Source: an uncultured beta proteobacterium
GTDB taxonomy: Bacteria > Pseudomonadota > Gammaproteobacteria > Burkholderiales > Usitatibacteraceae
Assembly (NCBI GenBank): GCA_963824135.1
Contig: CAWGOH010000008.1
Span: 22-64,021 of the forward strand
DNA length: 64,000 nt
Direction: 5' to 3'
Shown: piece after piece, positions 53,082 through 61,800 of the stretch
How the letters are laid out: the number at the start of each line of letters is the position of its first letter
How positions within the stretch are numbered: the stretch's first letter is position 1
Program-made: the position numbers and the translations under genes
The notes under the pieces: generated by a model
What the model saw: only the letters and a program-made list of their open reading frames with translations
Database searches by the model: none
What the model was told of the DNA's origin: nothing

Positions 53082-56000
53082 TCAGGCGCGCAGCAGCGCC
53101 AGCGCCGCGTCGAACTCGAAGCGGTTGGCGAGGCGGGTGAGGGTGTCGACGCGCTCCTCGCCCAGGGCCATCCGGAGGCCCTGGCCGTGCTGGTCCAGGA
53201 AGGCGAGCGCGGCGGCGTCCGAGTGCTCGAGCAGGGCGGAGAGCTCCTCCAGGAGCCGCGCGGCGGTGGCCGGATCGGGAGCGGGGCCGCTGCGTTGCGC
53301 GGGCGCGGGGGCCGGCGGCACCGCCGCCGACAGCTTGGCGAACTCCGCGGCGATCTCGTCGAGGGCGGCCGTGCCTTCGGACCGGGCCTTCATGAGCGAC
53401 TCCAGGCGCGCGGCATGTGCGGAGAGCGCGGTGGCGCCGAGGGTCGCGGCCACGCCCTTGAGGTTGTGGGCCATGGCGCGCGCGGCCTCGTGGTCGGCGC
53501 GGGCGAGGTGTTCGCGCAGGCGCGCGACGTCCGTCGCGCGGGAGGCGAGGACGCGGTGCAGCAGCGAGAGGTACTTGCCGGCGTTGCCGCGCACGACGGC
53601 GAGCCCCTGCGCGAGGTCCAGGCCCGGCAGGCCGGAGAGCCGCGCGAGGATGGCCGCGTCCGGGTCGGTGGCGGGGGTTTCGGTGGCGGGGGGCGCCTGG
53701 AGGGCGATGCGGCCCTGGGCGGCGCCGATGGCGAGCCAACGCGAGAGGGCGCCGTAGAGGGTGGGGGGATCGACGGGCTTGGCGACGAAGTCGTTCATGC
53801 CGGCGGCCTCGCAGGCGCGGCGGTCCTCGTCGAAGGCGTTGGCGGTCATGGCCAGGATCGGCACGAGCTCGCGCCCGGGCAGGGCGCGGATGGCGCGCGT
53901 GGCGGCCAGGCCGTCCATCTCGGGCATCTGCACGTCCATGAGGATGAGGTCGTAGGCGCTCTCCCGGGCCATCGCGACGGCCTGGCGGCCGTCCTCGGCG
54001 GTGTCCACCGCCAGGCCCACCCCGTGCAGCAGCTCCAGGGCCACCTCGCGGTTGATGGGGTTGTCCTCCGCGAGCAGCACCCGGGCGCCGGCGTGGCGAA
54101 GCCGCAGGCGCGTCTCGGTGTCGCCCTCGCCCCCGGTGGGCGCGGCGGGCTCGATGCCGTGGCCGCGGGCCAGGCGGGCGGTGAACCAGAAGGTGCTGCC
54201 CTTGCCCGCTTCGCTTTGCACCCCGGCCTCGCCGTCCATGAGCTCGGCCAGCTTGCGGGTGATGGCCAGGCCCAGCCCCGTGCCGCCGTACTGGCGCGTG
54301 GTGGAGGCGTCGGCCTGCTCGAAGGCCTGGAACAGGCCCGCGACCTTCCCGGCGGCGATGCCGATGCCGGTGTCGGCGACCTCGAAGCGCACGAGCAGGC
54401 GCTCGCCGTCGTCCTCCAGCAGCTGCGCGCGCAGCGCGATCGAGCCGCGCTCGGTGAACTTGATGGCGTTGGCGGCGTAGTTGAGCAGCGCCTGGCGAAG
54501 CCGCGTGGAGTCCCCGCGCAGCCAGGTGGGCACGCTGCCGGCGTCGAGGGTGAGCGCGAGCCCCTTGGCCTGGGCCTGGCCGGCCACGAGCGAGCGCACG
54601 TTGTCCAGGATCGCCGCGAGGTGGAAGTCGGCGCTCTCGAGCTGCATGCGGCCGGCCTCGATCTTGGACAGGTCCAGGATGTCGTTGATGATCGTGAGCA
54701 GGTGCCGGCTGGCCCCGTCGATCTTCTCCAGGCGCAGCGCCTGCTCCGGGGTCGCCCCCGAGCGCCTCATCAGGTGCGTCAGGCCCACGATCGCGTTCAT
54801 GGGCGTGCGGATCTCGTGGCTCATGTTCGCCAGGAACAGGCTCTTGGCCCGGTTGGCCGCCTCCGCCCTCTCGCGCGCCTGCGCCAGCTGCTCCGTGCGC
54901 AGCCGCACCAGCTCCTCCAGGTGGTGCCGGTGGCGGTCGAGCTCCTCCGCCACGCGCTTCCTTTCGGTGACGTCCTGCATCGCGCCGATCATCCGCTCCG
55001 GATTCCCGCCGCGGTCGCGGCTGATGTAGCCGCGGTCCTCGATGTCGGCATAGCTGCCGTCGCCCCGCCGGAACCGGTAGTAGTCGCTCCACGTCTCCTG
55101 CCCCGTGTCGATCGCGGCGTGGATGCTCTCGTGGATGCGCGCGGCATCGGACGGGTGGATCCGGTCGAGCAACGATCCGTGGCCGGGAGGAAGATCCTCC
55201 GGACGGTAGCCGAAGAGGTGGAAGAAGGTCTCGTTCCACCACAGGTCGCCGCTGCGCAGGTCCCAGTCCCAGATGGCGTTGAAGGTGGCGCGGTTGGCGA
55301 GCTGGTAGCGCGTCTCGCTTTGGCGAGTCGCCTCTTCCGCGAGCTTGCGCTCGGTGATGTCGGTATGGGTGCCCAGCATCCTGAGCGGCGTGCCGTCGGC
55401 CGCGCGCTCGACGACGCGGCCCAGGGAGAGGATCCACTTCCAGCCGTCGCCTTTCAGGCGCTGGCGGAACTCGACGCGGTATTCGGGGAGCCTGCCGGCG
55501 ACGTACTCGCGGTAGGCCGTCGCGGTGGCGTCCCTGTCGTCGGGATGCAGCCTCTCGATCCAGGCCGCGTTGGACTCGCGGAAGGTCGCCGGGTCGTGGC
55601 CCAGCATCGTGGCGTACTCGGGGCTCGTCTTGGCTTCCCCGGTCCGCAGGTCGAGGTCGTACAGGCCCTGCCCGCTCGCCTCGAGCGCGAGGCGAAGCCG
55701 CTCCTCGCTCTCCTTCAGCGCCTCCTCGGCCCGCAAGCGCTCGGTGACGTCGTGGGCGAGCACCAGGCGCGCCGCGCGCCCGTCGAAGTCGAGCGTGTGC
55801 GAAGTGACCTCGACCCGCATCGTCGCGCCGTCCTTGCGGCGGTGCGTCCAGACCGTGGCCGCGCCGAGGCCGGCGGGGCGGTCCCGGATCGCGGACTCCA
55901 GCTGCGGCACGTCCTCCGGCGGCCGGATGTCCCGGAGGGTCATCGCGAGGAACTCCTGCCGCGAGTAGCCGTAGCGGGACACCGCGGCGTCGTTGACGGC

Positions 56001-58848: not shown

Positions 58849-61800
58849 TCGCGCGCGCTCTTGAGTGCCTCGAGCGCCCCGTCGAGCTCGAAGCGGCCGG
58901 CGAGGCGGGCCACGGACTCGAATTTCCCGCCGAGCGTGTGCCGGAGGCTCTCGCCGTGCAGGTCGAGGAAGGCGAGCGCGGCGGCGTCCGAGTGCTCGAG
59001 CAGGGCGGAGAGCTCCTCGAGGAGCCGCGCGGCGGTGGCCGGGTCGGGTGCGGGCCCAACGAGGATGGCCGCGTCCGGGTCGGTGGCGGGGGTTTCGGTG
59101 GCGGGGGGCGCCTGGAGGGCGATGCGGCCCTGGGCGGTGCCGATGGCGAGCCAACGCGAGAGGGCGCCGTAGAGGGTGGGGGGATCGACGGGCTTGGCGA
59201 CGAAGTCGTTCATGCCGGCGGCCTCGCAGGCGCGGCGGTCCTCGTCGAAGGCGTTGGCGGTCATGGCCAGGATCGGCACGAGCTCGCGCCCGGGCAGGGC
59301 GCGGATGGCGCGCGTGGCGGCCAGGCCGTCCATCTCGGGCATCTGCACGTCCATGAGGATGAGGTCGTAGGCGCTCTCCCGGGCCATCGCGACGGCCTGG
59401 CGGCCGTCCTCGGCGGTGTCCACCGCCAGGCCCACCCCGTGCAGCAGCTCCAGGGCCACCTCGCGGTTGATGGGGTTGTCCTCCGCGAGCAGCACCCGGG
59501 CGCCGGCGTGGCGAAGCCGCAGGCGCGTCTCGGTGTCGCCCTCGCCGCCGGTGGGCGCGGCGGGCTCGATGCCGTGGCCGCGGGCCAGGCGGGCGGTGAA
59601 CCAGAAGGTGCTGCCCTTGCCCACTTCGCTTTGCACCCCGGCCTCGCCGTCCATGAGCTCGGCCAGCTTGCGGGTGATGGCCAGGCCCAGCCCCGTGCCG
59701 CCGTACTGGCGCGTGGTGGAGGCGTCGGCCTGCTCGAAGGCCTGGAACAGGCCCGCGACCTTCCCGGCGGCGATGCCGATGCCGGTGTCGGCGACCTCGA
59801 AGCGCACGAGCAGGCGCTCGCCGTCGTCCTCCAGCAGCTGCGCGCGCAGCGCGATCGAGCCGCGCTCGGTGAACTTGATGGCGTTGGCGGCGTAGTTGAG
59901 CAGCGCCTGGCGAAGCCGCGTGGAGTCCCCGCGCAGCCAGGTGGGCACGCTGCCGGCGTCGACGGTGAGCGCGAGCCCCTTGGCCTGGGCCTGGCCGGCC
60001 ACGAGCGAGCGCACGTTGTCCAGGATCGCCGCGAGGTGGAAGTCGGCGCTCTCGAGCTGCATGCGGCCGGCCTCGATCTTGGACAGGTCCAGGATGTCGT
60101 TGATGATCGTGAGCAGGTGCCGGCTGGCCCCGTCGATCTTCTCCAGGCGCAGCGCCTGCTCCGGGGTCGCCCCCGAGCGCCTCATCAGGTGCGTCAGGCC
60201 CACGATCGCGTTCATGGGCGTGCGGATCTCGTGGCTCATGTTCGCCAGGAACAGGCTCTTGGCCCGGTTGGCCGCCTCCGCCCTCTCGCGCGCCTGCGCC
60301 AGCTGCTCCGTGCGCAGCCGCACCAGCTCCTCCAGGTGGTGCCGGTGGCGGTCGAGCTCCTCCGCCAGGCGCTTCCTCTCGGTGATGTCCTCCTTCACCG
60401 CCAGGTAGTGGGTGACGCGCCCGTCGGGCTGGTGGATGGGCGTCACGATCGCGAACTCCACGTACTGGGTGCCGTCCTTGCGCCTGTTGTGGAACTCGCC
60501 GCGCCAGATCTCGCCCCGGGTGAGGGCCTCCCACATCGCCAGGTGGAGTTCCCGGGGCGTCCTTCCCGACTGCAGGATCCGCGGATTCTGCCCGAGCACC
60601 TCGGCACGGTCGTAGCCCGTGACGCGCACGAAGGCCTCGTTCACGTATTCGATCTGCCCTTCGAGGTTGGTGATGACGATGCTCTCGGGGCTCTGCTCGA
60701 CCGCCAGGGAGAGCTTGCGCAACTGCTCCTCCGCCGCGCGCTGCACGGTCACGTCGCGGATGATCATGCTGGTCCGGGGCCGGCCGTCCTTGTCGGCGAA
60801 CACGGCCGACGAGACCTCGGCGCGGGAAGGTCGTGCCGTCCCTGCTGCGCATGCGCATCTCGCCGCTGAAGCGGCCCGTGCGTTTCCGCTCGGCCAGCGC
60901 CGCGGCGAGGCGCGGATCGGACTCGTCGGCCAGTTCATTTCTTCCGACGGCGCGCAGCTCCTCCTGCGTCCGCCCGAAGATCCGCTGCGCCGCCGGATTG
61001 GCGGCGAGTATGGGCCCCTCCGGCGAGGTGAGCAGCACGGCGTCGTTGCTGTTGTCGAAGAGCGAGCGGTAGAGGTCCTCGCTCTCGCGCAGGGCGGATT
61101 CCTCGCGGTGGCGCGTGATGGCGATGGCGGCGAGGTGGCTGGCCAGGGCGATGAGGCGGCGGTGGTAGTCCGTCGGCCGGGCGGGCATGCGGTAGTACAG
61201 GGCGAACGTGCCCAGCACGCGGCCGTCGGCCCCGAAGATGGGCTGCGACCAGCTCGCGCGCAGGCCGCAGGCGAGCGCGACGTCGCGATAGCCGGCCCAC
61301 AGCTCGTCGGTGGCGATGTCCTCGACGATCACGGTTTCGCGTCGCCATGCCGCCGTTCCGCAGGAGCCGGCCTTCTCGCCGATCGCCTGGCCGTCGACCG
61401 CGTTCACGAAATCCTCGGGCAGGCCGGGCGCCGCCCCGTGGCGCATGTGGATGCCGTCGTCGTCCAGGAGCAGGACCGAGGCGAGCATGCCGGGCGCCAT
61501 GTCCTCGATCGCCGTCGCGATCTCTCCCAGGGAAAGGGGCAGGGGCCTTCCCGCCAGCACGCCTTCGAGAATCTCTTTCTGCACGGCGAGCATCCGCTCG
61601 GCGCGCTTGCGCTCCGTGATGTCCTGCACGGTGCCCACCATCCGCACCGGGCTGCCCGCGGCGTCGCGTTCGAGGATGCCGCGGCCGTTGATGGTCCGCA
61701 TGTCGCCGCCGGGATGCAGCACGCGGAACTCCAGGTCGCCGGCCTTCTCCCCGGCGCGGCACCGGCGCATCCATTCCGTCACCGACTGCCGGTCGCCGTG

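Follow-up and report, generated by a model that had tools for sequence, protein, structure and literature searches.

Gene conversion is known to drive the concerted evolution of bacterial paralogs such as tufA and tufB or the rRNA operons. After duplication, two-component proteins should soon diverge in the residues that determine specificity, which keeps their pathways insulated. The subject of this report is a pair of hybrid histidine kinase genes, HK1 and HK2, which belong to one operon and share an almost identical 1.3-kb transmitter cassette behind unrelated sensor halves. They lie in a stretch of 64,000 nucleotides (nt) of contig CAWGOH010000008.1 (assembly GCA_963824135.1), from an uncultured beta proteobacterium of the family Usitatibacteraceae. 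The whole of this stretch is referred to below as the window, and position 1 is its first letter. Comparison with contigs from relatives indicates that gene conversion has very probably kept the cassette in long-running, domain-limited concerted evolution. HK2 is without the Hpt domain that HK1 carries.

Several described systems come close to this arrangement. Long-lasting cases of concerted evolution have been surveyed (PMC6053082), and duplicates of mtrA provide another example (PMC4632066). The locus is like those paralogs in that similarity within a genome exceeds similarity between genomes, persists through speciation, affects synonymous sites and concerns copies placed close together on one replicon. 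Unlike them, only one module of a multidomain gene would have been converted here, bounded by non-homologous sensors and by an indel. The survey contains no mention of kinases or two-component genes (PMC6053082), and literature word searches of limited scope did not turn up a description of concerted evolution confined to one module of histidine kinases, which is not proof of novelty. Regarding the kinases themselves, the hybrid kinase LadS of Pseudomonas aeruginosa, which has no Hpt, uses the Hpt of GacS and then GacA, and the relay from H1 to D1 and then to H2 has been shown experimentally (PMC4866733). At the present locus an Hpt-less hybrid kinase likewise stands beside an Hpt-bearing unorthodox kinase. 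However, LadS and GacS are unlinked and clearly diverged, and LadS does not heterodimerise with GacS, whereas HK1 and HK2 are co-operonic, have cassettes of 99.5% identity and are known from sequence alone. In the GacS network, related hybrid kinases cross-phosphorylate, a behaviour termed 'phylogenetic promiscuity' (PMC8175716). That work dealt with diverged relatives and engineered chimeras, whereas this locus is an extreme case of natural near-identity. Several hybrid kinases also converge on one Hpt in the case of LuxN, LuxQ and CqsS, which signal to LuxU, and in that of HptB of P. aeruginosa. Many sensors feeding one Hpt is also what is proposed here, but there the Hpt stands alone as a separate protein and the transmitters are diverged paralogs. 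Finally, in Xanthomonas the hybrid kinase RpfC, which contains REC and Hpt domains, is paired with RpfG, a REC-HD-GYP phosphodiesterase of cyclic di-GMP (c-di-GMP) (PMC3749722). Here too a hybrid kinase adjoins a REC-HD-GYP gene, a pair that is kept in the outgroup contig L005 and in the relative L006, and a PilZ protein is encoded nearby; the differences are that the sensors are of the PAS/GAF, 5TMR-LYT and dCache types and that the kinase next to HD-GYP is the Hpt-less one. Identity with the Rpf system, which responds to the diffusible signal factor (DSF), was considered and rejected, because the sensors differ from the RpfC type and no DSF genes are evident at the locus; rpfF was not seen there and was not looked for beyond it.

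The operon is read from the minus strand in the order REC-HD-GYP, HK2, dCache_1-PAS and HK1 (Table 1). According to Pfam, HK1 is composed of 5TMR-LYT, four PAS domains, HisKA, HATPase_c, REC and Hpt, followed by a helical tail of ~68 amino acids; the order in HK2 is a transmembrane segment (TM), PAS, GAF, PAS, GAF, PAS, PAS, HisKA, HATPase_c and REC, followed by a tail of ~70 amino acids, with no Hpt. The sensor halves are unrelated and have the architectures given to them in the initial annotation, which was made from the sequence without database searches. By these domains HK1 is classed as an unorthodox hybrid kinase and HK2 as a plain hybrid kinase without Hpt. In both of them HisKA (73-74 bits) and HATPase_c (85-86 bits) are matched, the H-box SHEIRTP and the DTGIGI and GGTGLGL boxes are found, and Response_reg scores 92.5 bits with the phospho-acceptor Asp motif of the receiver in place; all catalytic and receiver motifs are present and the Pfam domains are complete. 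The two REC domains are separated by one substitution, just outside the Pfam REC match.

When the window was compared with itself by BLASTN, 53645-54976 matched 59060-60391 over 1332 nt at 99.47% identity, with seven mismatches and no gaps, at the constant offset of 5415 from which a near-identical 1.3-kb module had first been recognised. This pair is the sole long repeat of the 64-kb window and is not attributable to chance. The mismatches fall at 53723, 54132, 54208, 54548, 54953, 54963 and 54971, three of them clustering at the upstream edge, and both edges are abrupt, homology being gone within a few bases. A second homologous block exists at an offset of 5769, as also noticed at the outset, with 86 of 90 positions identical in 53197-53286 (against 58966-59055). 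The ~99% identity that had been implied for it did not hold, since the actual values are 85-95%, and longer alignments give 89% across 130 nt and 85% across 185 nt with two gaps. Taken along their length, HK1 and HK2 compare as a mosaic of four neighbouring segments, namely the 99.5% cassette, an indel, a segment of 95% and a segment of 69%, and this mosaic is well suited to measuring the limits of conversion tracts.

For comparison with relatives, dCache-PAS serves as a good single-copy anchor and has orthologs at 95, 90 and 86% amino acid identity plus a series of more distant ones, all metagenomic. The protein homologues are named as metagenome-assembled genomes of Burkholderiales, Rhodocyclaceae and Betaproteobacteria. 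A scan of the contigs of representative genomes with dCache-PAS gave only distant relatives (27-46%), and a look-up of its exact sequence found none on record. The same operon and repeat edges occur in four independent assemblies. Contig L010 (90.6% nt identity) comprises HK2 from the second GAF on, dCache-PAS, and HK1 to 129 nt into the repeat, where it stops. L006, a long-read-style contig at ~80% nt identity, holds the entire syntenic locus including the PilZ, REC and Hpt-REC-OmpR genes, and it resolves both cassettes (12780-14115 and 18033-19353, 92.6% identical with many 1-nt gaps). L009, a megahit contig at k=141 from short reads, is 98.5% identical to 60311-54834, with 80 substitutions and two 1-nt gaps; its first base lies 80 nt into the repeat of HK2 and its last base 142 nt into that of HK1, and its two ends overlap exactly over 63 nt (1-63 = 5414-5476), by which it is recognised as a collapsed repeat. 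L012, a SPAdes contig, has an exact self-repeat of 3799 nt (3923-7721 = 9345-13143) that reaches the contig end and duplicates the dCache-PAS gene, and this is read as an assembler loop through the repeat. As an outgroup, L005 encodes the best full-length HK2 homologue (P0002, 1573 amino acids, 57% identity over 98% of the query) next to the same REC-HD-GYP neighbour; its C-terminus is REC-Hpt-tail, and there is no dCache-PAS or HK1 gene. Two other good HK2 matches, P0005 and P0007, are truncated by contig ends or stand in other contexts and are uninformative. The distant dCache-PAS homologues P0143 and P0144 precede one kinase, with no HK2, and lie outside the repeat-bearing clade.

In these comparisons the paralogous cassettes group by genome, even though the lineages have in common the operon, the repeat edges and an HK2 devoid of Hpt. 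HK1 and HK2 cassettes are 99.5% identical within the window and 92.0% within L006 (a lower bound, the L006 contig being noisy), while all four pairs of window and L006 cassettes give 83.1-83.5%; window and L010 cassettes are 95.3% identical. At the upstream edge both window copies read CTGCGCACG...GCGGCCAAC and both L010 copies read CTGAGGACG...GCGGCGAAC. The single copy in L009 has a mix of HK1-type and HK2-type alleles at four internal variable sites. The comparison of synonymous divergence (dS) that had been suggested for the sensor and transmitter halves was carried out: the window paralogs differ in their cassettes by a dS of 0.006, with two synonymous and four non-synonymous changes in 440 codons, against ortholog values between window and L010 of 0.21 in the HK2 sensor, 0.17 in dCache-PAS, 0.18 in the HK1 sensor and 0.086 in the cassette. 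Purifying selection acting alone, without any conversion, might be invoked to keep the cassettes alike, the cassette being the most conserved part of the operon between strains; this is hardly conceivable, since selection at the protein level cannot erase synonymous differences (0.006 between paralogs, 0.086-0.21 between orthologs) and cannot give paralogs shared lineage-specific synonymous changes.

The sequence beyond the indel bears on the age of the duplication. In the distal tail (~115 nt) the paralogs are 69.4% identical and the HK2 orthologs of window and L010 85.5%, which argues that the duplication is far older than the split between window and L010. In the proximal tail (93 nt) the relation is reversed, with paralogs at 94.6% and orthologs at 83.9%, and this segment marks a second, older and shorter conversion tract beyond the indel. 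Within the window alone, the 99.5% identity and the sharp edges would fit equally well a recent duplication or transplant of the cassette with no history of repeated conversion. However, relatives at 90% and ~80% nt identity also have the two-kinase operon, the edges of the repeat and an HK2 without Hpt, the distal tails are only 69% identical, and window and L010 each have their own substitutions in both paralogs, so that the event would have to recur in every lineage at the same boundaries. A recent event is therefore very unlikely. Where the initial annotation left 'recent duplication or ongoing gene conversion' side by side, the grouping of paralogs by genome and their dS uphold the conversion, and the conservation of operon and edges in ~80% relatives, together with the distal tails, sets aside the recent duplication.

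Concerted evolution of the cassette by gene conversion has probably proceeded as follows. Through an old duplication, two sensor arrays of the operon, unrelated to each other, would have come to be followed by the same transmitter cassette (HisKA, HATPase and REC, originally with Hpt and tail). Non-reciprocal recombination of the RecA type between the direct copies, 5.4 kb apart, would then have repeatedly overwritten one with the other. The tracts would halt where homology halts, one boundary being the junction with the unrelated PAS domains and the other the 354-nt Hpt indel; the distal tail would never have been converted. In mechanism the locus is a case of ordinary gene conversion, acting on direct repeats that lie close together; it is a well-supported example, unsurprising in principle. 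The two kinases are a natural pair that appears to have been held together for long over one module only and with complementary domain content, one Hpt serving as the complement for two kinases.

This missing Hpt has been described at the outset as exactly 354 nt (118 codons) containing AHNLKG, and alignment and Pfam agree with that description. In HK2 one Val takes the place of HK1 residues 1188-1306 (119 amino acids, including AHNLKG), hence the net absence of 118 codons, and Pfam Hpt scores 38 bits in HK1 with no match in HK2. The possibility that the segment persists elsewhere in another frame was addressed by tblastn, which found no second copy of the HK1 Hpt segment in any frame of the window. 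In an AlphaFold2 (AF2) model of the last 212 residues of HK1 (predicted local distance difference test score, pLDDT, 91) the segment folds as a canonical Hpt bundle, with 3myf, HptB (7c1i) and BarA (3iqt) as structural matches, and a separate tail unit of four short helices comes after the bundle. The junction ...AAIL-[V/A]-GP[A/V]PDPAT... is shared by the window and by L009 and L010, the residue at the join being Ala in the latter two. In L006, HK2 has the same left edge and reaches a stop six codons further on, ~40 nt before the start of dCache-PAS, and so is without both Hpt and tail. The outgroup homologue P0002 and most other homologues retain Hpt. No microhomology was evident at the deletion endpoints. 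Since the same Hpt-less junction stands in otherwise intact genes of the relatives, the deletion in HK2 is, on the evidence of these contigs, in frame, old and retained; the recent lesion that had been implied is not borne out by the dating with window, L009, L010 and L006. The Hpt of HK2 would have been lost once, in frame, before these lineages split, and that state would have been kept since.

As regards the tail, its unit of ~68 amino acids after the Hpt, with the consensus LLxxLxxLLxxxDxxAxxxF...LGxxxxxLxRxIxxFxFxxAL (alignment A1), is kept in many REC-Hpt hybrid kinases of this family. HK2 retains it without Hpt, and L006 HK2 has lost it. The HK1 tail has no Pfam match, the tail alone giving sub-threshold noise, and no fold match in the PDB, in which only the Hpt half was matched.

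A repeat of this kind raises the question of the assembly, in which truly diverged copies might have been homogenised by multi-mapped reads, or one consensus might have been duplicated. Such an artefact would be in keeping with the 1-nt insertions found throughout the window, which betray an imperfect consensus, and the source's own reads were not found in public runs, the best of which (a landfill metagenome with a 98.5% relative) holds 0.56 of the words. It is nevertheless highly improbable. Seven substitutions separate the copies, hence they were not simply cloned; the flanks are unique and continuous on all four sides; the 63-nt end overlap of L009 and the stop of L010 at 129 nt into the second copy are as expected for near-identical copies; and L006 resolves two of them. 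What did prove right is the warning that the repeat is an assembly hazard, as public short-read contigs of the relatives break, collapse or loop precisely there. In practice, short-read assemblies of this operon are broken or mis-joined by the 1.3-kb direct repeats, and a recombination event joining the two copies would remove 5.4 kb, recreating a single kinase with the HK2 sensor and an Hpt.

As written, HK1 and HK2 are not intact open reading frames (ORFs), a point that the initial annotation overlooked. The frame changes near 56820 and 56413 in HK1, near 62754, 62663 and 60822 in HK2, and near 63517 in the HD-GYP gene. Illumina-based metagenome contigs of 95-99% identity have one base fewer at all six sites, and removal of the six bases yields uninterrupted HK1 (1374 amino acids) and HK2 (1443 amino acids) with no stops. 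Like shifts occur in unrelated genes, one ORF being restored by removing 38763 and 39394 and another shift lying near 40400. A Viterbi scan of the periodicity of GC content at third codon positions (GC3) proposed ~20 shifts over 64 kb and recovers the well-spaced verified ones. The verified extra bases are 38763, 39394, 56413, 56820, 60822, 62663, 62754 and 63517, and the candidates are ~6081, 11547, 12204, 12799, 15197, 24296, 28185, 29750, 31116, 31652, 40402 and 50740; window-wide, frame-breaking extra bases come to about one per 2-3 kb. As the extra bases are absent from the relatives and found all over the window, the frameshifts are probably consensus insertion errors and not decay specific to the locus, and gene calls from this sequence require frameshift-aware handling. 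Were the six frameshifts real, the operon might be read as a decaying cluster of pseudogenes, with the absence of Hpt as part of the decay and the identity of the cassettes devoid of functional meaning, and as written two shifts in HK1, three in HK2 and one in the HD-GYP gene do put these genes out of frame. This reading is improbable: each verified shift is an extra base absent from the 95-99% relatives whose removal restores full-length proteins, the same type of shift affects unrelated genes (38763, 39394, ~40400) among ~20 candidates over 64 kb, and the absence of Hpt from HK2 is a conserved feature of lineages whose ORFs are otherwise intact.

A number of points nonetheless weigh against concerted evolution of functional kinases as described above. 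The exact figure of 99.5% rests on an assembly with, demonstrably, many 1-nt insertions, and the 92% of the noisy L006 contig is no more than a lower bound. With the repeat collapsed in L009 and looped in L012, these contigs are uninformative on paralog identity in those strains; moreover, L012 as assembled has Hpt on both kinases, although that assembly is not trusted. If the frameshifts were real, the locus would be decaying and the functional model moot. Finally, the low divergence of the cassette between strains is not explained by conversion alone, because an exchange of this kind between two copies is not in itself expected to slow neutral change; codon constraint, recombination between strains or biased conversion are possible causes. 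Between window and L009 the cassette has diverged by 0.24% and the flanks by 1.1-4.3%, and divergence is low even at synonymous sites (dS to L010 0.086 against 0.17-0.21).

Turning to the neighbouring genes, HK2, dCache-PAS and HK1 are joined by ATGA overlaps of stop and start codons, the ATG of HK1 overlapping the stop of dCache-PAS. The C-terminal coiled coil of dCache-PAS reads DITARK.... More distant homologues of the protein are likewise found directly upstream of, and overlapping, a histidine kinase gene (L013-L018), and dCache-PAS with its downstream kinase suggests a conserved pair of accessory sensor and kinase. On the other side of HK1, 1.2 kb from the end of this kinase, the Hpt-REC-OmpR gene provides the second Hpt of the locus and is syntenic in L006. 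An N-terminal Hpt on a regulator of the OmpR type is an unusual fusion.

Table 1. Features of the kinase operon and its surroundings (positions in the window).
Feature	Position	Strand	Basis and remarks
Hpt-REC-Trans_reg_C (OmpR-type) regulator	50833..51906	-	Pfam Hpt 34.1 bits (cut-off 24.6), REC, Trans_reg_C
Single-domain REC	51948..52367	+	Pfam; convergent on HK1; syntenic in L006
YcgR-like PilZN-PilZ protein	52360..53073	+	Pfam; convergent on HK1; syntenic in L006
HK1, unorthodox hybrid kinase, 1374 amino acids after removing two extra bases	53082..57208	-	Frame walk, repaired translation, Pfam
HK1 post-Hpt tail, four short helices	53085..53288	-	First ~93 nt 94.6% identical to HK2 tail, rest 69%
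HK1-only segment, 119 codons; Hpt four-helix bundle with phospho-His in AHNLKG	53289..53645	-	Alignment, Pfam, AF2 model
Repeat copy A	53645..54976	-	End of last PAS (DITERKR) via HisKA, HATPase_c, REC and linker to ...DPDAAIL
Extra base (+1), HK1	56413, also ~56820	-	Relatives' contigs one base shorter; L009 in a single frame through it
dCache-PAS sensor-only protein, 547 amino acids	57205..58848	-	TM, dCache_1, TM, PAS, C-terminal coiled coil; no output domain (Pfam)
HK2, hybrid kinase, 1443 amino acids after removing three extra bases	58845..63179	-	Frame walk, repaired translation, Pfam; start codon uncertain
HK2 tail, homologous to HK1 tail	58848..59057	-	Alignment
Hpt-deletion junction in HK2	59057..59060	-	Alignment
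Repeat copy B	59060..60391	-	Self-BLASTN match to copy A, inside HK2
Extra base (+1), HK2	60822, also ~62663, ~62754/5	-	Relatives' contigs one base shorter
REC-HD-GYP response regulator, C-terminal part, runs off the window	63202..64000	-	Orthologous genes in L005 and L006 are REC+HD_5
Extra base (+1), HD-GYP gene	~63517	-	Relatives' contigs one base shorter

This gene content allows a signalling scheme to be outlined, in which the three translationally coupled sensors (HK2, dCache-PAS and HK1) may, tentatively, form one multikinase phosphorelay. Each kinase would perform its internal transfer from His to Asp. HK2, having no Hpt, would need one in trans, and its phosphorylated REC is predicted to pass the phosphoryl group to the Hpt of HK1 or to that of the neighbouring Hpt-REC-OmpR regulator. 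The Hpt would in turn serve the REC-HD-GYP phosphodiesterase, the OmpR-type regulator, or both. The relay would set c-di-GMP levels, which the PilZ protein encoded next door would read. An HD-GYP/PilZ circuit of c-di-GMP is the probable output, which plausibly consists of c-di-GMP turnover plus transcription. The architecture for sharing an Hpt is present, with an Hpt-less hybrid kinase, an Hpt-bearing partner and a second Hpt at 50833-51906. The 'identical partner specificity' that had been predicted for the two kinases has to be reworded in this respect, because the partner of the DHp domain of a hybrid kinase is its own REC; the prediction becomes that the same Hpt serves both receivers. 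A further and rather doubtful speculation is that the identity of the cassettes is itself useful, by making heterodimers of HK1 and HK2 as ready to form as homodimers, since the dimerisation helices of the DHp and the REC domains stay identical, with a single shared Hpt, in a complex that, given co-translation with dCache-PAS, integrates three inputs. If this were true, conversion would prevent the insulation of paralogs, the opposite of the usual divergence in specificity of two-component proteins after duplication, and the conserved loss of Hpt from HK2 would be a signature of dependence on the shared Hpt. The locus would allow obligate cross-talk, or the integration of signals, to be tested cleanly and at low cost in kinases that sense differently.

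Away from the operon, the only RNA gene found is tRNA-Phe(GAA) (37884-37959, plus strand), which accounts for a depth spike in metagenomes. Some 4 kb upstream of this gene, the stretch 33600-34000 differs from the landfill relative by clustered small indels and is probably a variable intergenic region.

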